Positions 29,385 to 41,009 are shown, counted from the first letter of the stretch. The stretch is DNA of 64,000 nt from a bacterium (GCA_015485355.1 WFTQ01000065.1:17391-81390), one strand, 5' to 3'. Notes: generated by a model not told the origin, from the letters alone. Numbers and translations are program-made.

Positions 29385-30288
29385 GCGAGTGGGTTTGTGG
29401 ATGGGCCTGGTTGTGCTTCTGGGAGGACAAGGGATTTCGGCACCGGGCGATTCTTCCCGCATTAGCCGGGCCGATTCGGTCTATACCCCCGAATATTTCT
29501 TAAAATTTGGACAATTTCTCTGGGAGCAAAGGGATTATTCCCGGGCCGCTACGGAGTTTGAGCGCTATGTTTTTTTAAACCCCCATCGAAAGTTGCCGCG
29601 GTTACGCTACCGGATCGGGTTATGTTATTATCGCCTGGGAGAGCTGGAACGGGCCCTCCGCTATTTTCAGGAGGCCTTTCAGTTGGGAAATGCTCCCTCT
29701 TTGAAGGATTCCAGCCGCTTGGCAATGGCGGCGGTATATTTGCGGCGTGGGGAAAATGGAGCCTTGCTGAGTCTGTTGTCGGAAAACGGAGCCCGGGTGA
29801 GTCGTTCCGAAATCCGCCGGCGCCTCCATTTATTTCGGGCGTTTTATTTCCTCCAGATGGGGGATTGGAACCTTGCCGCGCATTCGGTTCCCGATACGGC
29901 CGGGGTGTCCTCCCGGGAGTTTGCCCTGGCAGTGCGGAGAATCCGGGACCTGGCCCGAAAAGGACGGGAGTTACCGTATAAATCCCCTGTTAAGGCGGCG
30001 CTGTTGTCCGGACTGTTGCCCGGGGGCGGCCGATTTTATCTCGGCCGGAAACAAGACGGTTTCTATTCCCTGTTGCTCATCACCGGTAGCGCCCTGCTCA
30101 GCTACCGGGGGTATCGCAATCATGGCCCTGCCCATTTCCAAACGATATTTTTCGGGTCCACCGCGGCCCTGTTGTATCTGGGGAACATCTACGGCTCGGC
30201 TGTGGCCGCCCGGCTACACAATCGGCAGATTGAGGAAAGATTGTGGAATGAAATTGATGAAGAAATGCTTCGCTGGACTGATCTATAG
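29368..30288 (+). CDS. TPR protein with C-terminal membrane segments
   Basis: Signal peptide, DYSRAATEFERYVF TPR, KSPVKAALLSGLLPGGGRFYLG, YLGNIYGS. Confidence 0.8.
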   Translation: MIIPIKRVGLWMGLVVLLGGQGISAPGDSSRISRADSVYTPEYFLKFGQFLWEQRDYSRAATEFERYVFLNPHRKLPRLRYRIGLCYYRLGELERALRYFQEAFQLGNAPSLKDSSRLAMAAVYLRRGENGALLSLLSENGARVSRSEIRRRLHLFRAFYFLQMGDWNLAAHSVPDTAGVSSREFALAVRRIRDLARKGRELPYKSPVKAALLSGLLPGGGRFYLGRKQDGFYSLLLITGSALLSYRGYRNHGPAHFQTIFFGSTAALLYLGNIYGSAVAARLHNRQIEERLWNEIDEEMLRWTDL

Positions 30289-31183
30289 TCTGCTCCTCAC
30301 AATATCCATTCAGGCTTCTGCCCCTCTTTCGGGCGATTCTCTCCTGATAGCCGTCGGGGATCGGTTCTTTGACCGGCGTAACTATACTGCGGCCATCACC
30401 GAATACCAGCGACTGCTGTTTTTTAACCCGCACCCGCCTCTGGCTCCTTACGCGTTTTACAAGATGGGTCAATCGTATCTGCACCTGGGGCAATACCGAA
30501 GGGCGGTGCTTTTTCTGAGAAGGGCTCTGATGTTTCCGGCAAAGAAAAACACCAGATTGAAATTGCGCCTCCAATTGGCCCTGGCATTTTTGGAAGGCCA
30601 GCGATACGATTTGGCCGCACTGGAATTTTTTAAAATGGAATCGCGCACCCAGGATGAAACCCTGAAGTTAACTGCTCAATTGTTTCGGGGATTGATTTAT
30701 ATCCGTCAGCAAAATTGGAAAGAAGCACGAAAAGTTCTGCGGAAGCTGAACGATCATCCCCGCTGTCACTTTCAAGAAACCCTTCAGGCGATCGACCGTC
30801 TACTGACTCGGTTAATGGAAAAACCCCGACTAAAAAATCCCCGAACGGCTCGGCTGTTGTCCACACTCCTGCCCGGTGCGGGACAGATGTATACCGGTCA
30901 TTTTTTTCTGGGGGTGGACGCCCTGGTCTTGAACGGTGCCAATACTTATCTGGTATGGCAAACTATCGTCAACCGAAATTATCTGGACCTGGGATTAAGT
31001 GTCGCCCTCCTATGGTTGCGCTATTATGAAGGCGGTCGCATTCGGGCAGAAATGCTGGCCCACAAAGTCAATCGTGAATATCAGGAGCGGATGACGCGAA
31101 GGTTATATCGGTTCCTTCAGGAACTGGCGGACTGTCTTCCTGCGTTCAGTACCCGGCTTACCTGGGAGGATTTTATTCCATAG
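30257..31183 (+). CDS. TPR protein with C-terminal membrane segments (paralogue of upstream gene)
   Basis: Likely start MKKCFAG; NYTAAITEYQRLLF TPR, KNPRTARLLSTLLPGAGQMYTG. Confidence 0.8.
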   Translation: MKKCFAGLIYSLLLTISIQASAPLSGDSLLIAVGDRFFDRRNYTAAITEYQRLLFFNPHPPLAPYAFYKMGQSYLHLGQYRRAVLFLRRALMFPAKKNTRLKLRLQLALAFLEGQRYDLAALEFFKMESRTQDETLKLTAQLFRGLIYIRQQNWKEARKVLRKLNDHPRCHFQETLQAIDRLLTRLMEKPRLKNPRTARLLSTLLPGAGQMYTGHFFLGVDALVLNGANTYLVWQTIVNRNYLDLGLSVALLWLRYYEGGRIRAEMLAHKVNREYQERMTRRLYRFLQELADCLPAFSTRLTWEDFIP

Positions 31184-31304
31184 ACCATAACAGCAGGGCA
31201 TTGGTGGGGAGGCGCAAAGTCTCTTTTAAAGATTGAAAAACAGCCGATTGTTGAGATCATCTTTCTGGGATTCGGAGCAATGAGGGTTAAATAAGGAGAA
31301 GCCC

Positions 31305-33176
31305 ATGCGCACAAATGTTCTGGATGGCTCTGGGGAGGCGCCTTCCTCCTCCGCGCCGAGGTTGCCCGAGCGGCGGGAGATCGATTCCCGATACCAATGG
31401 CGACCGGAAGCCATTTATCCCTCTCTAAAGGCCTGGGAAGCGGACTATGAAAAGGTCCGGCGGATGATGACCGGGATGGACGCTTTTCTAGGGCGTTTGG
31501 GAGAGTCTGCCGAAACCCTTCTGGCCTGCCTGCGACAACGGGATCGGTTGAACGAGCGGATTGGCAGATTAATATTGTATGCGGGCATACGCAGCGATGA
31601 AGATAGCCGGGTGGCACAGTTTCAGGCGCTGCGGGATCGGGTCGCCGCTTTGGCTGCCGGTTTGCGGCGACATCTGGCCTTCATTCAGCCGGAAATTCTA
31701 TCCCTTCCGGAAGGGAAGTTATGGAACCTGGTTGATCGATTGCCCGAATTGGGTGTCTATCGCCATCATCTGGAGGATATCAAGCGACGGAAAGCCCACG
31801 TGCTTCCTCAACAACAAGAACAGCTGCTGGCCCTGGCCGAAGAGTTTGCCCAGGGACCTTACAATATTTTCAGCATGTTCAACTATGCCGATATCCGGTT
31901 CCCCAGGGTGAAGGATGAGAGCGGTCAGGAAATTGAACTCACTCAGGAGCGTTTCCAGAAATTGTTGGAGTCCGGAAACCGCCGGGTGCGCAAAAATGCC
32001 TTTCTGGCGTTTTATGGAACCTACGAGAAATGGCTGAACACCTTGGCCGCCACCCTTGCCGCAAATATTAAGAAAAATGTTTTTTACGCGAAAGCCCGTC
32101 GGTATGCCTCGTCCCTGGAAGTGGCCCTGGATGAAGAGAATATCCCCCCCGAAGTCTACCAGAATTTGGTGGATACGATGAACCAGAATTTAACGCCGTT
32201 GCATCGATACATCCGTTTCCGCGGCCTTCGGCTTCACCTTTCCACCGTCTATCCCTGGGATTTGTATGTACCTTTAGGAGAGCCCCCTCACTTCAATTTT
32301 TCTTATGAAGAAGCGGTGCAACTGATCACCGAAGCGTTACAACCATTGGGGGAATCCTACCAGAAAGAATTGCGCCGCGGATTTTCCGAAGGATGGATCG
32401 ATGTGTTCGAAAATCGGGGCAAGCGAGCAGGGGCCTACTCCTGGTCCACTTATGGTGTGCACCCGTTCATTCTGCTGAATTATGATGGAACCTTGCGGAG
32501 CGTTTTTACCCTTGCTCACGAAATGGGGCACGCATTGCATTCCTATTTCACCCAGCAAAAACAACCCTTTATCTACAGCCAGTACGACGTGTTCGTGGCC
32601 GAAGTGGCCTCCACCCTTAACGAAGCCCTGGTGATCGATTACCTGTTGAACATGACCCGGGAACCGGAGAAGAAATTGTATTTATTGAATCAATATGCGG
32701 ATCAGATCGTAAAAACGGTCTACATTCAAACACTGTTTGCCGAATTTGAAAAACTCATCCACGAAAGGGTTGAGGCCGGCGAGGCGCTTACCTCGGAATT
32801 TCTCTGCAACCTGAAGGAAAAACTCTATCGTCGATATTTTGGAAAAGCGTTTAGTTTAGGCAGGCTGTATTGTGTGAACTGGTGCCGGATCCCTCATTTT
32901 TATTACGGCTTTTATGTGTATAAATATGTGACCGGATACTCGGCCGCCGTCGCACTGTCGCAACGCATTCTTTCCGGGGATGTCGCAGCACGGAATGCTT
33001 ATCTGGATTTTCTTTCCCGCGGAGGTTCCGACTATCCCCTGAACCTGCTGAAAGATGCCGGTGTGGACCTGACTCGTCCGGAACCCCTTCAAGCCACCGC
33101 CCAGCTGCTGGATCGGCTGGTGGAAGCAATGGAAACCATGGGAGGAATCAAGGATACCTCGGCTCCAGGGCGTTGA
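31305..33176 (+). CDS. pepF: Oligoendopeptidase F (M3B)
   Basis: GKRAGAYS, TLAHEMGH zinc motif, FVAEVAS, RIPHFY, GGSDYP. Confidence 0.95.
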   Translation: MRTNVLDGSGEAPSSSAPRLPERREIDSRYQWRPEAIYPSLKAWEADYEKVRRMMTGMDAFLGRLGESAETLLACLRQRDRLNERIGRLILYAGIRSDEDSRVAQFQALRDRVAALAAGLRRHLAFIQPEILSLPEGKLWNLVDRLPELGVYRHHLEDIKRRKAHVLPQQQEQLLALAEEFAQGPYNIFSMFNYADIRFPRVKDESGQEIELTQERFQKLLESGNRRVRKNAFLAFYGTYEKWLNTLAATLAANIKKNVFYAKARRYASSLEVALDEENIPPEVYQNLVDTMNQNLTPLHRYIRFRGLRLHLSTVYPWDLYVPLGEPPHFNFSYEEAVQLITEALQPLGESYQKELRRGFSEGWIDVFENRGKRAGAYSWSTYGVHPFILLNYDGTLRSVFTLAHEMGHALHSYFTQQKQPFIYSQYDVFVAEVASTLNEALVIDYLLNMTREPEKKLYLLNQYADQIVKTVYIQTLFAEFEKLIHERVEAGEALTSEFLCNLKEKLYRRYFGKAFSLGRLYCVNWCRIPHFYYGFYVYKYVTGYSAAVALSQRILSGDVAARNAYLDFLSRGGSDYPLNLLKDAGVDLTRPEPLQATAQLLDRLVEAMETMGGIKDTSAPGR

Positions 33177-33227
33177 ACCTGGCATTATAAATATTCGGAC
33201 TATAATGTCCACAATTTGCTTTCGTTA

Positions 33228-33256
33228 TTGCTTCTTATCCGGAAAACGGTTAATAT
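33228..33256 (+). promoter_or_regulatory. Putative promoter of the copper-uptake locus
   Basis: TTGCTT-N17-TAATAT. Confidence 0.5.
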
Positions 33257-33297
33257 AAAGGCCACGAAGGAATCGATTCAATGAGGGCGGAAGGTTG

Positions 33298-33720
33298 ATG
33301 AGGCGGGTATTGGTTTGTGGCGTGGTCTTCTTTTTACTCGGTTTCGGTAGCGGGTTTCCGCTGTTTCTGGCACCGGGGGTCGGTTCGGCTGCTCCTCATG
33401 CTCATGGTACCTGCCGGTGCGGTTGTGCCGCAGATGAACATGCCGATTGTGATGGCGGATGTTGTGGTGCGGCGGCAGTAACCGGCCAGGTGGGTATTTG
33501 CTCGTTCACTTGCAGCTGTTATTCCCATCCGCCCCAGCTTATCCCCCTGACGCTGAAATGGATCTTACCCCGCACTATTCCATTGGTGAATATCCCCAGG
33601 GATGGGCGGTGGTTGGGAGACATTTTCATTCCCGGGCCTCTGGCGGTTCCCGACTCTCCCGATCACCCTCCGGAAAACCTCTCCAGCAGTTTTACCTCCT
33701 GGCATTTCGAAATCGTCTGA
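33298..33720 (+). CDS. Cys/His-rich exported leader ORF (DUF2946/CruR-like architecture)
   Basis: Hydrophobic N-terminus, HAHGTCRCGC, CDGGCC, CSFTCSC, Pro-rich tail with PDSPDHPP. Confidence 0.7.
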   Translation: MRRVLVCGVVFFLLGFGSGFPLFLAPGVGSAAPHAHGTCRCGCAADEHADCDGGCCGAAAVTGQVGICSFTCSCYSHPPQLIPLTLKWILPRTIPLVNIPRDGRWLGDIFIPGPLAVPDSPDHPPENLSSSFTSWHFEIV

Positions 33721-33970
33721 AAGAGCCGGTAAGGGATCCCGCTTCCCGATGATCCCGGCAACCGTGACCCGGTTCTCGACAGGGCGGGCAGGGATCGGCT
33801 CGGTCAATCCCTGTGGTTTGCTGCTCTTCCTGGTTCAAAGACGCTCCTCTTGGGAATGGAGCTATGCCGCTGCCCGGCGGGTCTCAACGCGGAAAGAAGC
33901 GCCCCGGCTCTTGGAAACAACAGTGAAAATCATTCGCTGCTTCTCCCGAAATTAGGAAAAGCAGCAAATA
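33721..33970 (+). promoter_or_regulatory. Structured cis-regulatory RNA between leader ORF and ytkA-like gene
   Basis: Helices 33721-29/33904-12, 33733-38/33751-56, 33789-95/33807-13, 33936-42/33959-65 and competing 33817-35/33950-68. Confidence 0.55.
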
Positions 33971-34000
33971 CTGGTGTCAAACGTTTCCGGAGGAATCAAT

Positions 34001-34798
34001 ATGAAAGCGTCTCTGCTTCTTTTCATTACCTTGGTGATTGGAATTTGGCTTTTCTCTTGTAACCGAAACAGCACCGGGGTTGATCCCGAACCTGATCCCA
34101 CCAAGGATTTGCATCGGATAGCCACCGGCGAACTGGAAAAGACCCTGGTAACGGTTTATTCGGATGCATCCTTACAAACGGGGTATTGCCGGATTTACGT
34201 GTTGTTAAAAGACCGGAACACAGGAAAAGTCTTACAAAAGGCCCGGATACAGATGACTCCCATAATGGATATGGGAGATATGAAACACAGTGCTCCCTGT
34301 GAAAATCCCCAGACCGGCTATGCGGAGAATGGATTGTTCCCGTGTGGGGCGGTTTTCATCATGTCGGGTACCTGGCAACTGGAGTTCCTCTTGCAGGAGC
34401 TGGAAAATGGTGATGCGGGTAAGGTGGTTGTTCCGGTGCAAGTGGCTCCCGCAAACCGCCTGAAGCAGGAGACCGGCAGCGACAGTGCCCACTATTTTCT
34501 GGCCCTGGTGGAACCTCGTTCCCCAAAGGTGGGAATCAACACTTTTGAAATCACCATTCATCAACAAGAATCCATGATGGCCTTTCCTGCCGTAACGGAT
34601 GTTGAAGTGACCATGGAACCGACCATGCCGTCCATGGGACACGGTTCACCCAATAATGAACACCCTATCCACAAGGGGAAAGGGCATTACCGGGGGAAAG
34701 TCAATTTTACCATGTCCGGGGCCTGGCAAATCGCTCTGCGGGTCTCTCGTAATGGACAATTGCTGCTGCAAACGATGTTTGATCTTCAGGTGCCCTGA
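34001..34798 (+). CDS. YtkA/FixH-family lipoprotein, two Met/His-rich Ig-like domains
   Basis: SD GGAGG, lipobox LFSC, PIMDMGDMKHSAP..FIMSGTW and PTMPSMGHGSP..VNFTMSGAW. Confidence 0.85.
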   Translation: MKASLLLFITLVIGIWLFSCNRNSTGVDPEPDPTKDLHRIATGELEKTLVTVYSDASLQTGYCRIYVLLKDRNTGKVLQKARIQMTPIMDMGDMKHSAPCENPQTGYAENGLFPCGAVFIMSGTWQLEFLLQELENGDAGKVVVPVQVAPANRLKQETGSDSAHYFLALVEPRSPKVGINTFEITIHQQESMMAFPAVTDVEVTMEPTMPSMGHGSPNNEHPIHKGKGHYRGKVNFTMSGAWQIALRVSRNGQLLLQTMFDLQVP

Positions 34799-34920
34799 CC
34801 CGATTGTTCGCTCCTTCAGTGGGGTGAGGTAAGGGACGGTTCCATGCCCTCGGGATTTCCCGATGGGCATGGAAATCAATGGATGGTTTCGATGGAGAAT
34901 CCAAACAAGGAGTTTGTCGG

Positions 34921-37215
34921 GTGAAGCGAATACCCATTTTCGAGAAAATTGCGATCCGCGTTTCTGGCAAGAACGGAGCGTTCTGCGGCCGGTTTACCCG
35001 GATAGGTCCGTGGATTTTTCTGATGGTAATGATCATCCAATCCATGGTTTCTGCTCAAGAAACGGAAGGTGTATTGGCGGGGCAGGTGCGGGATAAGGAA
35101 ACAGGAGCACCGGTGCCGTTTGCTAACATAAAGGTGCTGGGTACTCCGCTGGGAACCGCCGGGGATTCCAGTGGCAATTTCTGGATGCGGTTGCCTCCGG
35201 GCCGTTATCGGTTGGCGATCTCTTCTCTGGGTTATGCCCCGGGCTATGTCAATGCTCAAGTTCATGCCATGCGGAATACCTTGGTTGAGATTTTCTTAAC
35301 CCCGGTTGCCATTCAATATGCCGAAGAAGTGGTGGTTTATGGAGATTCCGAAGCCCGGCGGCCGGCGGTTCGATTGAACCGCACCGAAGCCCTTATGGAA
35401 CGGATGGAGGGTATGGCTCTGATCAAACGGGCTGACTTTGCTTGGGAGCCTTCCATCCGCGGGATGAGTGCCGCACAGATTGGTGTGGTGATTGACGGGA
35501 TGAAAATCTTCAGCGCATGTGTGGACCGAATGGACCCGGTGACGGCCTACGTAGAGGTGGAAAATCTGAAAGAGTTGGATATCCGCAAAGGAGGATTCGA
35601 CCTGACGCTGGGTGCGTCTGCCGGCGGTACCGTTAATCTGGTGACCTACAAGCCGGAGTTTGACCGCCCGCTTTTGTTACGGATGGAGGCGGGGGTGGAG
35701 TCTGCATCCGCTTTGCGAGTCGCCCGGGGAGAGGCGAATTGGTCGGATGGCACCCTGGCGGTTCGCGCCACCCTTTCGGTGAAACAGGCCGGTGATTTTT
35801 ATGCCGGCGGAGGCCGGCGCATCCGGAATTCCGGATATCGAAAATACAATTTTCATGTCGGTTTTTCCCGCAGGTGGGGGACGGACCGACAATTGGAATT
35901 CTCCCTGATCGGCGACGAAGCGCGCGATATCGGATATCCCGTCTTGCTCATGGATGCTCGGAAAACCTCTTCCCGCATCCTGCGTCTGGAGTATTTCTGG
36001 CGCCCCCACGGCCGGGATGGATTCACCCTGCGCAGTAAAATCTATTATAACCACATTCGCCACTGGATGGATGACTTTCAGCGTGATGTGCATCGCCGAA
36101 CCGTGATGCCGGGCATGTACATGCCCATGTTTGGCGAAACCCATACCGTGGGATGGGTGGAAGAAGTTCGGTTGCAAAAGGGAACTCACGTCCTGAAGCT
36201 GTTTCTGGATGGTTACCGAATGCGGGCGTTTGCCGATATGCAAATGATCAGCCTGGATGCCGAAAGTCCCCCGGCCTACCTGATGAACCTGGGCGATGTG
36301 GTGAATGTCCAAGGCGCTCTGGCCCTGGATCACACCGGGATGATCGCTTCCCGATGGTGGATCCGAAACAATGTGCGAGTGGATTTCTCCTCAAGGGATG
36401 TGACCCGTGAATTCGGCCGCAGGGCGCTGACCGGTTTCTGGGAGGGATCGGACACTTACCGGCGTTACTGGACTTTCAGTGCCAGTACTTCCCTGGAATA
36501 TCAATTCAGTGATCACCGGAGCCTGCGTTTCTCTGTGGCCAGTACCCAGCGCATGCCCTCCCATATGGAAAATTATGGTTTTTTCCTTTATAATATCCTG
36601 GATGGGTATTTCTACACCGGGAATCCGAGTGTATTACCGGAATGGAGTCGTCAGGCAGAGCTGGTATTCGAACAATTTTCCCGCCCCCTCCGTTTCCGCA
36701 TGGTGGGGTTTGTCAACGACGTGCGCAATTACATAAGTGGAATGGTGCAGTCGAAGGAATTTAAGGTATACACCAATCTGTCTTCTGTATACTGGCTGGG
36801 GGCCGAAATGCGGGGGGAGTGGGAGGTCCGGGAACATCTGGCTACCCGGTGGAGCATTGCCTACACCCGCGGTCATAATCGAGAGTTCAAAGAACCCTTG
36901 CCGTTGATTCCGCCGCTGGAAGCCATGGTCAGTGTCGATTGCCGGTGGGATAAATTCCGGCTGGCGCTGGAAGGGCGGTTTGCGGCTCCCCAAAACCGCA
37001 TTGCCACACGAACCACTCTGGAAGATAAAACCCCGGGATTTGTTCTACTGAATCTGCGGCTCCAGTTTCCTTTGGCACCCTGGTTGAAAATAAGATTAGG
37101 AATGGAAAATGTGCTGGATCGCTATTATCATGAACACTTGAGCATCAACAACTTACCCGGGAGAGGCCGCAATATGTACCTGATGTTTCGCATCCTTTTT
37201 CCCCCAGAGGGTTAG
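34921..37215 (+). CDS. TonB-dependent receptor, OprC-like putative copper transporter
   Basis: SD AAGGAG before GTG 34921; CarboxypepD-like N-domain, plug SIRG..IDG..SACVDRMDP, HWMDD, MPGMYMPM, ENVLDRYYHEHL..PGRGRN. Confidence 0.88.
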   Translation: MKRIPIFEKIAIRVSGKNGAFCGRFTRIGPWIFLMVMIIQSMVSAQETEGVLAGQVRDKETGAPVPFANIKVLGTPLGTAGDSSGNFWMRLPPGRYRLAISSLGYAPGYVNAQVHAMRNTLVEIFLTPVAIQYAEEVVVYGDSEARRPAVRLNRTEALMERMEGMALIKRADFAWEPSIRGMSAAQIGVVIDGMKIFSACVDRMDPVTAYVEVENLKELDIRKGGFDLTLGASAGGTVNLVTYKPEFDRPLLLRMEAGVESASALRVARGEANWSDGTLAVRATLSVKQAGDFYAGGGRRIRNSGYRKYNFHVGFSRRWGTDRQLEFSLIGDEARDIGYPVLLMDARKTSSRILRLEYFWRPHGRDGFTLRSKIYYNHIRHWMDDFQRDVHRRTVMPGMYMPMFGETHTVGWVEEVRLQKGTHVLKLFLDGYRMRAFADMQMISLDAESPPAYLMNLGDVVNVQGALALDHTGMIASRWWIRNNVRVDFSSRDVTREFGRRALTGFWEGSDTYRRYWTFSASTSLEYQFSDHRSLRFSVASTQRMPSHMENYGFFLYNILDGYFYTGNPSVLPEWSRQAELVFEQFSRPLRFRMVGFVNDVRNYISGMVQSKEFKVYTNLSSVYWLGAEMRGEWEVREHLATRWSIAYTRGHNREFKEPLPLIPPLEAMVSVDCRWDKFRLALEGRFAAPQNRIATRTTLEDKTPGFVLLNLRLQFPLAPWLKIRLGMENVLDRYYHEHLSINNLPGRGRNMYLMFRILFPPEG

Positions 37216-37551
37216 CGGGGGGCGGTTTGCCGCTTTCTTCGCTCCATCGGCGTGGCCGCATCCCTTGGAGCCGTGGGGAAGGCGACATTTCGGGAAGTAC
37301 TGAGGGAGGGTGGCGTCCTCCGGGTGTCGGTTTCCCGGCATCCCTTTCGAAAATTAAGGCGGGCAAAAGAACCCGTTGAATGGGGAGCGATCGCTGGTTA
37401 AATTTCCCTCAGGGTATTCAAAAGAGGGAAAGCGACAACCTGAGATCAAGGATAAGAAATGGGGGGGTGAAGGGAACCCGTATATGCGTGTATCAGAGTT
37501 TCGGTCGGGAAAGGGAAGAGCATTTCCAAGCGTAACCCTGGAGGTTAAGAT

Positions 37552-38190
37552 ATGGCTTCTAAAGATCCTAAACGGCGGGGAAATCGACGGAAACAAGTCC
37601 AGTTTTTCAATAGATTCACCCGGGATCGGGAACGGGTTCCCCCGGGGCAGTATGTTACTCGTAAATTTCCGGTGCTCACCCACGGAGAAACCCCGGATAT
37701 CCGACCGGAGGATTGGCATCTGGAGGTGTTTGGGGCCGTGGAACAGCCCCTTCGTTTGGATTGGAAAGCCCTGATGAAACTGCCTCGAAAGACGGTTCGG
37801 GTGGATATCCATTGTGTCACCCGATGGACTCTTTTAGGTACCGAATGGGAAGGCGTTCCTTTTCAGGTTATTGTGGACAAGGTGCACCCTCATCCTCAGG
37901 CCCGTTTTGTGATGCAATATGCTTATGGTGGGTACACAACCAATTTACCCCTGGAGGATTTGTTGAAAGAAGATGTGTTATTGGCCTTCCATTTGAATGG
38001 TTATCCCCTGCCCCGGCAACATGGGGGACCGGTACGAATGCTGGTGCCCCACTTGTATTTCTGGAAAAGCGCCAAATGGTTAAAGGGGCTGGAATTTATG
38101 ATCGAGAACCGACCGGGTTTCTGGGAACAGCATGGCTACCATATGCATGGGGACCCCTGGAAGGAGGAACGATTCTCCCAGGAGGATTGA
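37552..38190 (+). CDS. Sulfite oxidase-like molybdopterin-dependent oxidoreductase (YuiH-type)
   Basis: VPPGQ, DIHCVTRW, YTTNLPL, HGGPVR, YFWKSAKW, GFWE..GYH..GDPW..ERF. Confidence 0.92.
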   Translation: MASKDPKRRGNRRKQVQFFNRFTRDRERVPPGQYVTRKFPVLTHGETPDIRPEDWHLEVFGAVEQPLRLDWKALMKLPRKTVRVDIHCVTRWTLLGTEWEGVPFQVIVDKVHPHPQARFVMQYAYGGYTTNLPLEDLLKEDVLLAFHLNGYPLPRQHGGPVRMLVPHLYFWKSAKWLKGLEFMIENRPGFWEQHGYHMHGDPWKEERFSQED

Positions 38191-38444
38191 CCGCCCCGAA
38201 CAGGGTCTAGTAAAGGGTTCCGGGTGAAAACCCACCACGTCTCGGGCCCTGATTGGTCTTTGTCCTCATCCGGGGATGGACGTCTCCAATCGTTCCAATG
38301 CTGAACTCTGCGCATCGCTCATCCGGCAACCTGTTCCTTTCATTGAACCCGTCGGATGCCTCCCCGGCATTAGTTCACCCTCCCACGGGATGGTTCCAGC
38401 GATGTTCAGGATGGGGGGGCGAAAACGATTTCCCCGATCATCTG

Positions 38445-39701
38445 TTATTTCAAACGGAAAAAGTCCTCCCGTACTTGCCGGAGCAACGGCAATAATTGAT
38501 ACTGATAAATATTGTCCCAGACATATTCTTTAATCACCTTTCGAAAGAAGCGACGGGTGGGAAGGCGAGAGATAAATTTCAGGATTTTATCGGCGATTTC
38601 GGCGGGGGTATCCTCCAGTTCAAAAAAACATACATCTCTTCCACCGATTTCCCGAAACGGGGGGATGTTGGAGCAAACGATGGGCAATTTAATCATTCCC
38701 GATTCCAGCAAAGGGATGCCGAAACCCTCCTGAAAGCTGGGCATGAATAAAATGTCGGAGATCAAATAGAGGTCCCGGATGATGATCCGATCCGGGGTCA
38801 AAGGCTGGCCGCTTCGAAACTTATATTCCGCCATAATGAGCACATCGGAGGAAATTTTCAGTTCCCGCGCCAGGGCCATGAGCTGTTTGTAATAGGTAAC
38901 CGTTTTGGGCTCGTGAGGATCATAGGCCCCGGTGACCAGCAAACGGGCCTGAAGCCCCCGGTCCTGTAACGCCCGGGTGACCCGGATGGACAGTTCGATG
39001 TTCTTTCGGGGATGGAGTCGGGAAGGCTGCACCATCAAAAAATCCCCTTCAAACAACCGTTGCTCCTGGATAATGCGCACGGTGGCGGGATCCAGGCGAA
39101 AAAATTGAATGGGATCGATGCCGTTGGGTATTACATAAATGTGATGCCGGGAACCGTAGAGCCGGGTGAACTGTTTTTTGCGGCTGTCGGAAATGACCAC
39201 ATAATAAATTTTGGCATGCGAGCGTTTCAGAATGTTCCAAGGAGAAGTATCCAGGAAGCGGGGATAATCCTCATAAAAAAAGGGTGAATCATGGTTCCAG
39301 CTGATGATGGGAAGTTGATCGTCCTGCGCCAGCCGGAAGATGGCATAGGTGAGTGGCAGGTTGTAGCGCATCGTCAGAACATTGTGGGCGATGAGCACAT
39401 CAAAATTGGCCAGGGCGTCGGATAGATAACGGTATACTTTGTGCGCTAATCTTTCTAAGGGTTCAAGATGACCCTCCAGAACCGTTTCGTGAGCCTTGAT
39501 GACCTGTTTATTGCGCGAGCCGAGTAAAGGGTTGATCTCCACCCGATAATGCGGGCTGAATTGGTCCCCGGCTCCGGCAAAGACTTTCACCTTATGATAA
39601 TATCGATGAAACAGGTTGGCCTGTTGCCGGATCACTTCTTCCACACCACCCACCACCGGAGGACAGGAGTAATGCAAAAGGGCGATGTTCAGTTGATCCA
39701 C
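38445..39701 (-). CDS. Glycosyltransferase family 4
   Basis: HYSCPPVVGGVE, PSRLHPRKNIE, PSFQEGFGIPLLE. Confidence 0.9.
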   Translation of the reverse strand: MDQLNIALLHYSCPPVVGGVEEVIRQQANLFHRYYHKVKVFAGAGDQFSPHYRVEINPLLGSRNKQVIKAHETVLEGHLEPLERLAHKVYRYLSDALANFDVLIAHNVLTMRYNLPLTYAIFRLAQDDQLPIISWNHDSPFFYEDYPRFLDTSPWNILKRSHAKIYYVVISDSRKKQFTRLYGSRHHIYVIPNGIDPIQFFRLDPATVRIIQEQRLFEGDFLMVQPSRLHPRKNIELSIRVTRALQDRGLQARLLVTGAYDPHEPKTVTYYKQLMALARELKISSDVLIMAEYKFRSGQPLTPDRIIIRDLYLISDILFMPSFQEGFGIPLLESGMIKLPIVCSNIPPFREIGGRDVCFFELEDTPAEIADKILKFISRLPTRRFFRKVIKEYVWDNIYQYQLLPLLRQVREDFFRLK

Positions 39702-39704
39702 GCT

Positions 39705-41009
39705 TCACACTCCCTGAAAATATTCTAACTCCCGAATCAGGTGCAACAACTTGCGTTCCAGTACCTCGTAGGAAAAATATTTCAATGCCAGTTGATAATT
39801 TTTTTCCACCATTTGCCGGCGTCGCTCGGGATTATGAAGCACCTGGCAAATGATGTCGATGGTATCTTGAGTAACAAAACCATCGATAGGAATGACATCA
39901 AAACCTTTGGGTTCAATATCGGCCACATAGATGGAATAGCGATTGACGACGATAGGCTTTTTGTAATAAATGGCTTCCAGAAAGGCATTGCCGAATCCTT
40001 CGTACCCGGATGGATAAGTGACCAGATCTGCACACTGGTATACATCCCCTATGGTGTAGATGTTCTCGCCGGTGAGGGTCGTGGCCCGGTGGGGGCCGAT
40101 CAGGTGATCGATGGTGGCGATTTTGACACCCAGATTCCGGGCGTATTCCATCACGCGGTGGTAGTAGGCGTCGCCCTCATCGCCGGTGGCGTGAGAAATG
40201 ACCAGAGTCGGGTTTTTTAACTTCATCAGGTATACGATTTCCACCGCCCGTTCGATCCACTTTCGGGGCACGACCCGTGTCGGTTGCAAAATGAACCAAT
40301 CGCCCTCCTTCAGCCCGATAATGGTGCGGAGTTCCCTGCAATGGCTGTTTTCCGGCGGTGGGGGCGAGGCAAAGTCGTACACATTCGGGATCAGGGTATT
40401 GGATATGCCCTTCCGGTGGCTCAATTGTTCGCTGGCCAGGGAATTGATGACCACATGACGAATGGAAGGCAAGTACGGGGGAAAAGATCGGTCGAGGTAA
40501 TCCATTACCGAATTGACCAGAAAGCGATTCCGCTCCCAGTAAAAATCGTGGTGATGGGCAATGGTGGGAATTCCCGTTTCCGCGATAAACTCTGTGATGG
40601 CCAGGCCCAGGGGGATGTTCATGGGAATGGCCAGGGCGTTTTCGGGGATAATCAGGTCAATGCCAAACCCATCCACAAACTCGTAAATCTTTTGTTTTAA
40701 ATAATCTTTGATCCCCTGAATCAGTTCACTGATTTCCCGGGGACGGAGGTGAAAACCGAAGGAAAACTCATTGATCTTCTGAATTTCCGGATGTTCGAAA
40801 TGGGCCTCTTCCACAATATGAGATTTCTCTGCGGGACGGTCACACAGTCCCGCCATATAGTAACAATCGTAATGGTTCCGTTCCAGCACGGCGGCCCACT
40901 TTTCGATTTCTAAGGAAACCCCATCGGTGCCGGCAATGCGGGTGGAAATAAATCCGATGCGCTTGAAACGGGTGCGCCTTTTCTTGCGCTTGGCCGTTGT
41001 TGCTGGCAT
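39705..41009 (-). CDS. Glycosyltransferase family 4, mannosylglucosylglycerate synthase-like
   Basis: RIAGTDGVSLE, AHHHDFYWER, QPTRVVPRK, YPSGYEGFGNAFLE. Confidence 0.85.
   Translation of the reverse strand: MPATTAKRKKRRTRFKRIGFISTRIAGTDGVSLEIEKWAAVLERNHYDCYYMAGLCDRPAEKSHIVEEAHFEHPEIQKINEFSFGFHLRPREISELIQGIKDYLKQKIYEFVDGFGIDLIIPENALAIPMNIPLGLAITEFIAETGIPTIAHHHDFYWERNRFLVNSVMDYLDRSFPPYLPSIRHVVINSLASEQLSHRKGISNTLIPNVYDFASPPPPENSHCRELRTIIGLKEGDWFILQPTRVVPRKWIERAVEIVYLMKLKNPTLVISHATGDEGDAYYHRVMEYARNLGVKIATIDHLIGPHRATTLTGENIYTIGDVYQCADLVTYPSGYEGFGNAFLEAIYYKKPIVVNRYSIYVADIEPKGFDVIPIDGFVTQDTIDIICQVLHNPERRRQMVEKNYQLALKYFSYEVLERKLLHLIRELEYFQGV

Follow-up and report, generated by a model that had tools for sequence, protein, structure and literature searches.

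What is a small cysteine-rich open reading frame (ORF) doing at the head of a set of copper-uptake genes? The question is raised by a stretch of DNA of 64,000 nucleotides (nt) from a hydrothermal-vent bacterium (GCA_015485355.1 WFTQ01000065.1:17391-81390; the whole stretch is called the window below, and positions are counted from its first letter), in which an upstream ORF (uORF) of 140 residues precedes a gene for a YtkA-like lipoprotein, here called ytkA, and a gene for a TonB-dependent receptor related to OprC. Exported leader peptides that sense metals and carry an xxPP motif were described in 2022-2023, and leaders of this kind are thus already known. To our knowledge, copper-sensing arrest leaders have been studied experimentally in only two Proteobacteria, and both are DUF2946 proteins. 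An original prediction had read the uORF as an analogous, divergent member of this kind, and the comparison of related loci presented here supports that reading, with each computational check that it had suggested turning out in its favour. The uORF is probably a cis-acting, copper-responsive arrest leader, which resembles CruR and CutF in its action and belongs to a separate sequence family.

The sequence features on which the prediction was built are confirmed. The uORF encodes a hydrophobic N-terminus, the motif HAH at residues 34-36, nine Cys residues after the hydrophobic segment (C39, C41, C43, C51, C55, C56, C68, C72 and C74) and a DHPP motif that is separated from the stop by 15 codons. 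Translation is taken to start at the ATG at 33298, and an alternative TTG at 33295 would give 141 residues; the ATG-AGG-CGG beginning is kept in two close relatives (G001 and L023). No Pfam or NCBIfam model matches the uORF protein (in Pfam, 0 families at E <= 1), and the source records call the proteins of the family merely 'hypothetical protein'.

Homologues of the uORF were found in eight clusters at E <= 1e-3 (E 2e-55 to 1.7e-4) by a profile search of 1.84 billion representative proteins, and a homologue from a congener matched at E 4.4e-29, while a word-indexed protein search with the uORF returned its own cluster only. Of 86 genomes from the phylum Calditrichota, 5 hold the family according to whole-genome searches, and when species-representative genomes were scanned with the YtkA protein, further members came to light in a Melioribacteraceae metagenome-assembled genome (MAG), a MAG labelled as Chlorobiota, a Calditrichales chromosome and an unclassified MAG. 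At every family locus examined, the uORF lies 5' of a ytkA-like gene and a gene for a TonB receptor with a CarboxypepD_reg domain, and no other neighbour is conserved. Because the uORF is conserved across lineages, the possibility that it is a chance ORF was rejected. A scan of the whole genome of the window (G000) for other leaders of the same design yielded only the window uORF and two unconvincing candidates. The one further small ORF of this genome to combine a hydrophobic N-terminus, Cys and His residues and PP near its C-terminus has 162 residues (G000:C51:3433-3921) and is located 52 nt 5' of a gene for 563 residues; it is not obviously of the same kind.

The architecture of the family is strongly constrained. 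In an alignment of ten sequences (A3), the invariant positions are C39, C41, C51, C56, C72, K87, P124 and P125, although in an alignment of 13 sequences three members (L109, L157 and L110) have no Lys in the K87 column. The original prediction proposed to test the conservation of the Cys clusters and of xHPP. The Cys cluster and the two prolines are invariant at a fixed spacing: in 12 of 13 distinct members, 50-52 residues separate PP from the last conserved Cys, and the thirteenth has an extra, non-conserved Cys. Across the ytkA loci compared below xHPP is the most frequent tail, but within the window family the His is an exception: the residue before PP is Lys in nine of the ten aligned sequences and in 12 of the 13 members, and His occurs only in the window, which makes DHPP the outlier of a KPP family. 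PP is found 3-7 residues from the stop in 12 of the 13 members, compared to 15 in the window, and the proteins are 128-147 residues long. In the AlphaFold2 model of the uORF protein only a helix at residues 2-17 is confident (predicted local distance difference test score, pLDDT, 74-90; mean pLDDT 51), and from the alignment of ten sequences no folded domain is predicted beyond this N-terminal helix.

A second feature is found at the level of RNA, where the 3' end of the uORF, at or just after the PP codons, is by computed pairing complementary to the ytkA Shine-Dalgarno (SD) sequence in a locus-specific manner. The 10-mer CCTCCGGAAA or its complement occurs in the 64 kb at two sites only, the PP codons and the ytkA SD, which lies about 310 nt further downstream. 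The two strands (33667-33676 and 33984-33993) are paired in the minimum free energy fold of 33640-34010. In a duplex scan of the whole leader, the 36-nt segment with the strongest pairing to the ribosome-binding region of ytkA was found to overlap PP in four of five genomes, the exception being G028. Furthermore, a footprint scan was carried out, in which a 30-nt footprint was forced to be unpaired and the probability of an open SD was then computed. A footprint at PP raises the predicted openness of the SD 12- to 490,000-fold in 9 of 11 loci (factors of 1.3e5 in the window, 1e5, 4.9e5, 12 and 86, with 0.9 in G028, and in five further loci 402, 99, 5749 and 665, with 0.2 in L142), and the best footprint positions overlap PP in most of the responding loci.

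Since the sequences vary from locus to locus, the 3' end of each uORF was paired with the ribosome-binding region of every locus, using 11 loci after L023 had been dropped as a near-duplicate of G001. Cognate pairs reach a mean of -15.3 kcal/mol versus -10.3 kcal/mol for non-cognate pairs, and a mean as low as the observed one was obtained in 0 of 100,000 permutations; for 6 of the 11 loci no other partner in the row pairs better than the cognate one, and the pairing is locus-specific in 8 of them. When six decoy segments of the same mRNAs were used instead, equal in length to the true segment and lying 45-180 nt upstream of it or downstream of it, the cognate partners were not preferred (p 0.22-0.69), and for this reason an artefact of base composition can be ruled out.

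The same design recurs at other ytkA loci. The original prediction proposed a search for short ORFs upstream of homologous pairs of ytkA and TonB-dependent receptor genes, and besides the family members, which are always in this position, many loci were found to carry an upstream ORF with a PP tail, defined as a same-strand ORF of 60-175 residues that ends within 480 nt and has PP in its last 22 residues. Such an ORF precedes the ytkA-like gene in 43 of 58 metagenome loci versus 24 of 409 control ORFs (5.9%), and in 54 of 71 genome loci versus 30 of 368 control ORFs (8.2%). The loci were drawn from two sets of 80 with YtkA relatives, of which 58 had at least 650 nt upstream and 71 were long enough, respectively; the controls are other ORFs of the same size range in the same loci, and the two sets share some contigs and are not independent. 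L110 is counted as a miss, yet it is a true family member with a spacer of 500 nt.

The commonest tail at these loci is FHPP (22 metagenome and 26 genome loci), DHPP occurs at 3 and 1, and FRPP, FQPP and FKPP are also found. The FHPP proteins form a large, unannotated family of about 110-135 residues, mainly from Bacteroidota (Chitinophagaceae, Flavipsychrobacter, Ferruginibacter, Pontibacter and others), which is without a match in Pfam or NCBIfam (it is represented in loci L024-L102 and L113-L180, for example by L027:1978-2364 and L032:1989-2369). They share with the window family the position 5' of ytkA, a membrane segment, a Cys motif, a fixed spacing and an xxPP tail, and they differ from it in the Cys motif itself, in their shorter spacers and in their mostly Bacteroidota hosts. 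Their three Cys residues lie in CxNKxxPxxxCxGxC, 62-74 residues from PP (interquartile range 66-67), and xxPP stands 1-8 residues before the stop. The cognate preference in the pairing with the ribosome-binding region is weaker than in the window family (in a comparison of cognate with non-cognate pairs, -6.44 versus -4.55 kcal/mol, reached by 0 of 20,000 permutations, with the cognate partner best in 10 of 46). In several FHPP loci (L029, L084, L049 and L058), the Phe-His codons TTTCAT are complementary to the ytkA start ATGAAA, and the codons after PP pair further upstream, which means that part of the constraint on the FH of FHPP may come from the RNA. One uORF (L142:992-1363) combines a CCC-type Cys cluster as in the window family, to which it shows a weak hidden Markov model (HMM) match (E 7.7e-6), with the FRPP tail of the FHPP family, and it may represent an evolutionary intermediate.

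Comparable ORFs were seen in two named families. Members of DUF2946 (PF11162) in other Calditrichota (L016:64-351, L017 and two ORFs in L018) end in HRAPP, NRAPP or NKAPP and are located 5' of a porin-like gene, or of a gene pair for a lipoprotein and a CarboxypepD_reg TonB receptor. The PF11162 model matches in 4 of the 86 Calditrichota genomes and finds nothing in that of the window, and the presence of both DUF2946-type and window-type leaders implies that the phylum uses at least two unrelated leader families. In Chitinophaga pinensis and a Lacibacter MAG (L184:1495-1815 and L185), Cys-rich DUF6660 ORFs that end in WQPP stand directly 5' of a gene for a resistance-nodulation-division (RND) efflux pump, and they look as if they were the equivalent, in Bacteroidota, of CutF-like leaders that serve efflux systems. 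Among the ESM Atlas neighbours of the uORF protein, which are unnamed clusters, DUF6769 and DUF6660 score 0.93 and DUF6660 is the nearest named type; DUF6769 was not found in five Bacteroidota genomes. Profile-profile comparison of the window family (13 sequences) by hhalign gave probabilities of 1.2% with the FHPP family, 0.5% with DUF6660 and 1.9% with four Calditrichota DUF2946 ORFs, the last being a small target alignment. As none of these values is significant, the likeness of the families is one of design and not of detectable descent.

Comparison of the loci establishes that the architecture is conserved, that the spacing is fixed and that the pairing is specific to the locus, and the mechanism that we propose would run as follows. 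The uORF would be the first gene of a three-gene copper-import operon, followed by those for the YtkA-like lipoprotein and the OprC-like receptor, and its N-terminus would bring the nascent chain to the Sec translocon. The lengths of the ribosomal tunnel and the translocon place residues 50-85 from the peptidyl-transferase centre just beyond the membrane. With a ribosome at the (K/H)PP codons, the Cys cluster would be 50-85 residues behind this centre and just outside the membrane, so that the nascent chain could report periplasmic copper. A ribosome pausing on PP would cover the anti-SD element in the PP codons and the few codons that follow, which would free the distant ytkA SD and allow ytkA to be translated, with the receptor gene probably next. 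Once the ribosome departs, the uORF 3' end would pair with the SD and the operon would be switched off. We infer that PP causes the arrest and that copper binding by the exported Cys cluster alters its length. By analogy, we favour a direction in which copper releases the arrest and turns the importer off, because an importer should be shut by its substrate, because oprC has been reported to be copper-repressed (PMC8610252) and because CruR provides a precedent. The likely output is unmasking of the ytkA SD by the stalled ribosome, perhaps together with a Rho mechanism of the CruR type.

Several observations weigh against this mechanism. The window protein is atypical of its own family in having His in place of Lys and a tail of 15 residues. 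The probability of an open SD remains low even with the footprint in place (0.0002-0.024), specific pairing is missing in three of the 11 loci (G028, L142 and L110), and in several loci the anti-SD element begins 8-13 nt after the first Pro codon, which is at the edge of what a stalled ribosome covers. The original prediction spoke of a structured spacer, a point that came out weaker: the spacer as a whole folds no better than shuffled sequences (z -1.18, with 14 of 100 shuffles equal or better). KPP and HPP differ from the RAPP and RGPP cores, for which robust arrest that resists elongation factor P (EF-P) has been demonstrated (PMC12992588), and a plain PP pause may be quickly resolved by EF-P. 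The direction proposed for the copper response at this locus is an argued one, and CutF acts in the opposite sense to CruR (PMC9973294). In addition, the AlphaFold2 result is based on ten input sequences only, and the five sequencing runs listed as containing the stretch are all DNA runs from hydrothermal-vent metagenomes, with no RNA run among them.

On a simpler reading, the uORF product would be a stable copper-binding accessory protein, periplasmic or membrane-anchored, such as a chaperone or a metallothionein-like buffer, with the RNA pairing serving only to couple ytkA to uORF translation and with neither regulated arrest nor copper sensing by a nascent chain. Conservation of the Cys cluster, and of the K87 motif that lies outside both the cluster and PP, speaks for such a protein, as does the constant gene order; KPP and HPP are not proven strong arrest motifs, and stalling would not be required to open the SD helix, as every ribosome arriving at the uORF 3' end would do so. 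It is, however, hard to explain in a mature protein why PP should be invariant just before the stop and at 50-52 residues from the last Cys, and why the same tail should recur in families without detectable homology (the FHPP family, DUF6660 and DUF2946). AlphaFold2 gives no fold for the protein, and CutF itself is reported in PMC9973294 not to be detectable in vivo. We consider an accessory protein an unlikely explanation, if one to be taken seriously.

Arrest might also be retained and the output placed elsewhere. In such a scheme, which follows CruR, the stalled ribosome would mask a Rho loading site in the uORF 3' end and its release would lead to Rho termination in the spacer, as the main or sole output, with the SD pairing being secondary. 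Like those of CruR homologues (PMC9426467), the spacers are of considerable length, with 236-302 nt in five genomes, 318 nt in L023 and 123-500 nt in other members, and the scan detected no intrinsic terminator on the + strand of the window spacer. Moreover, in six of nine loci no more than about 60 nt separate PP from the segment of the uORF and spacer with the strongest excess of C over G (C 0.23-0.45, G 0.06-0.14), and in the window the segment that starts 30 nt before PP has C 0.40 and G 0.17. Pro codons nevertheless bring C into every PP region, and the skew may therefore be without function; no such richness in C is seen in the spacers themselves, Rho dependence is not reliably predictable from sequence, and the locus-specific complementarity to the SD would be left unexplained. 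We regard Rho termination as the principal output as improbable. SD unmasking and Rho termination are not mutually exclusive, and since a C-rich, G-poor stretch overlaps the stall site, a parallel Rho route with the same polarity is possible.

A third suggestion, that the small Cys-rich ORF near a TonB-dependent receptor encodes the precursor of a ribosomally synthesised and post-translationally modified peptide, a chalkophore-like copper chelator taken up by the adjacent receptor, was rejected and deserves almost no credence, as the conserved module consists of the uORF, ytkA and the receptor only, with no modification, maturation or export genes, the protein has 128-147 residues with a putative N-terminal hydrophobic export segment, the receptor retains the ligands that OprC uses for ionic copper, and neither the C-terminal PP nor the RNA pairing would be explained.

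Within the arrest-leader reading, a more specific and considerably more speculative idea can be formulated, which we put forward tentatively and rather doubt than believe. The leader could be a force-sensing metal switch, in which the exported Cys cluster, at a distance of exactly 50-52 residues from the peptidyl-transferase centre, folds round copper at the translocon mouth and pulls the chain off a weak (K/H)PP arrest, while the arrest codons act as the anti-SD of a gene 120-330 nt away. The same design would then have evolved convergently in at least four families without detectable homology (DUF2946, DUF6660, the FHPP family and the window family). Because the arrest codons would double as anti-SD, the constraints on peptide and RNA would fall in the same dozen nucleotides. 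If this were true, a Cys or His motif, a fixed spacer and xxPP would constitute a general, family-independent grammar for periplasmic metal sensing.

The genes downstream of the uORF connect the locus to copper. The Met/His-rich lipoprotein noticed in the original prediction belongs to the YtkA-like proteins, and its lipobox Cys and an MPSMGHGSPNN block are invariant in the family alignment (A4); the YtkA domain has been tied to copper delivery in B. subtilis (PMC13344008). The receptor has an N-terminal CarboxypepD_reg domain and its closest solved relative is OprC of P. aeruginosa (E 1.7e-25), and its best NCBIfam model, the TonB-copper equivalog TIGR01778, is matched with 159 bits, below the cut-off of 472, which marks it as a distant relative. 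The likeness to OprC that had been drawn from its SACVDRMDP segment was borne out by alignment, as both the CxxxM and the HxM ligands, which make up the copper site of OprC (PMC8610252), align with their OprC counterparts, and none of the four copper ligands of OprC is thus lost. Both motifs are kept in the receptors of all five family loci checked, and this conservation strengthens the assignment of the operon to copper. The genome has a NosZ-like gene and three genes for heme-copper oxidase subunit I, hence it needs copper. The gap between ytkA and the receptor gene (34799-35022) measures 224 nt, and 33-170 nt in four relatives; the longest frame of the receptor starts at 34879 and would give a non-conserved N-terminal extension. 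Downstream of the receptor, positions 37552-38190 encode a protein of 212 residues with an MsrP/YedY-like molybdopterin oxidoreductase domain (PF00174, E 1.5e-44), which was rejected as a part of the module as it is not a conserved neighbour in relatives.

The promoter-like element proposed upstream of the uORF received mixed support: its hexamers and their 17-nt spacing are kept in G001 and L023, but it agrees with the consensus at 7 of 12 positions only and is absent from a consensus scan. Between this -35-like hexamer and the gene of an M3 oligopeptidase lies an inverted repeat (33196-33211), both arms of which are kept in G001 and L023 (alignment A5), and it may either terminate transcription of the peptidase gene or serve a transcription factor as operator. 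An Rfam scan of 30000-40000 gave no match at E <= 1. The coordinates of all features are collected in Table 1.

Table 1. Features of the uORF, its spacer and the genes that follow in the window (putative functions as discussed in the text).
Feature	Position	Strand	Basis or remark
Inverted repeat GGAC, 6 nt, GTCC, 5' of the -35-like hexamer	33196..33211	+	Terminator-like hairpin in scan
Promoter-like element TTGCTT, 17 nt, TAATAT	33228..33256	+	7/12 consensus positions
uORF, Cys-rich, 140 residues, putatively exported or membrane-anchored, C-terminal DHPP	33298..33720	+	ORF calling and homologues
Putative signal peptide or N-in membrane anchor, about residues 1-30	33298..33387	+	Hydrophobic stretch in 13/13 members
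Cys cluster C39 to C74, 9 Cys, putative periplasmic copper-sensing part	33412..33519	+	Invariant Cys in alignment A3
Lys87 in (F/Y/W)K(F/Y/W)(V/I/L), 37 residues before PP	33556..33558	+	Invariant in the 10-sequence alignment A3
DHPP, residues 122-125, putative ribosome-arrest site	33661..33672	+	Aligns with (D/E/P)KPP of other members
Anti-SD element CCTCCGGAAA, from Pro-Pro-Glu-Asn codons	33667..33676	+	Reverse complement at 33984-33993
Spacer between uORF and ytkA, 280 nt	33721..34000	+	Length compared across loci
Anti-SD partner TTTCCGGAGG, contains ytkA SD GGAGG (33989-33993), 7 nt before ATG	33984..33993	+	Complementarity
YtkA-like lipoprotein, 265 residues, Met/His-rich motif	34001..34798	+	PF13115, E 1.3e-19, 71 bits versus gathering score 25.9
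OprC/NosA-like TonB-dependent copper receptor, 730 residues from likely start	35023..37215	+	Start chosen by homologue comparison
CxxxM copper-ligand motif, plug domain, C166 to M170 of the 730-residue form	35518..35532	+	Aligns with OprC Cys/Met pair
HxM copper-ligand motif, barrel wall	36061..36069	+	Aligns with OprC His/Met pair

With respect to what was known, the window family and, at ytkA loci, the larger family with FHPP appear new as sequence families, as do the (D/E)KPP and HPP tails and the long-range pairing in which the anti-SD consists of the very codons of the stall site. The main texts of PMC9973294 and PMC9426467 make no mention of YtkA; the supplementary lists of these papers were outside the check, and an earlier listing there is possible. 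On the reading favoured here, the principle of the exported copper-sensing leader would hold in Calditrichota and lineages close to them as well, through a family that goes unrecognised by any profile library, and most ytkA-linked copper importers in Bacteroidota would be preceded by yet another unannotated family built in the same way. The complementarity between stall codons and ribosome-binding site is a concrete prediction that can be tested by mutation and compensatory change, and it offers a criterion, applicable to sequence alone, for leaders that homology searches miss.

Among the known systems, the closest precedent is CruR (Bp2923) of Bordetella pertussis, a DUF2946 protein whose gene is the first of an operon with a copper-repressed TonB-dependent transporter. 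CruR has an N-terminal export signal and a CXXC motif 45 residues from RAPP, a spacing conserved in DUF2946, is followed by an intergenic region of 162 nt, and acts post-transcriptionally in cis; as long as it is arrested on RAPP, the transporter gene downstream stays expressed, and the arrest is relieved by copper, which CruR senses through CXXC (PMC9426467). The window uORF is similarly the first gene of a copper operon, with a Cys motif at a fixed distance from a C-terminal xxPP and a long intergenic region (280 nt). Unlike CruR, its family ends in (D/E)KPP or DHPP and not in RAPP, has a cluster of 5-9 Cys instead of a single CXXC, spaces it 50-52 instead of 45 residues from PP, precedes a gene for a YtkA-like lipoprotein and belongs to the phylum Calditrichota and not to Proteobacteria, and its predicted output is SD unmasking and not Rho termination alone. 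PF11162 matched none of ten window-family members at E <= 10, a result consistent with the term 'analogous, divergent' that the original prediction had chosen when it proposed a comparison with the DUF2946 HMM.

A broader setting is provided by the RAPP/RGPP arrest peptides (ApdA, ApdP, SecM-like), small proteins of the secretory or membrane type that carry their xxPP core close to the C-terminus and are encoded 5' of the gene that they regulate, in some cases upstream of metal genes (PMC12992588); the core Arg and Ala/Gly of these peptides are absent from the window family. The Bacteroidota DUF6660 proteins (PF20365) resemble the window family as small Cys-rich ORFs with an N-terminal hydrophobic segment and a C-terminal WQPP, and they differ in that the downstream genes serve metal efflux by an RND pump and not import.

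The second precedent, CutF of Rhodobacter capsulatus, is an exported protein whose copper-enhanced stalling melts a stem-loop that hides the SD of the next gene (PMC9973294; bioRxiv 10.1101/2025.02.05.636593). CutF-like proteins were defined operationally by a length below 150 residues, a PP close to the C-terminus, the presence of a signal peptide and a same-strand gene downstream, and the published list holds 5,334 of them, whose frequent neighbours include TonB-like ones (PMC9973294). The window uORF agrees with this definition in its size (140 residues) and in its same-strand gene 280 nt downstream (limit 1000 nt), and its PP, at residues 124-125 of 140, lies just outside the last 15 residues demanded by it, within which the other 12 members have theirs. 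Like CutF, the uORF product is a putative exported nascent-chain copper sensor. CutF, in contrast, controls a detoxifying oxidase and is stalled more strongly by copper, and its stem-loop is local with a short spacer, whereas the strands of the helix predicted here are 120-330 nt apart and one of them is the coding sequence of the stall site.

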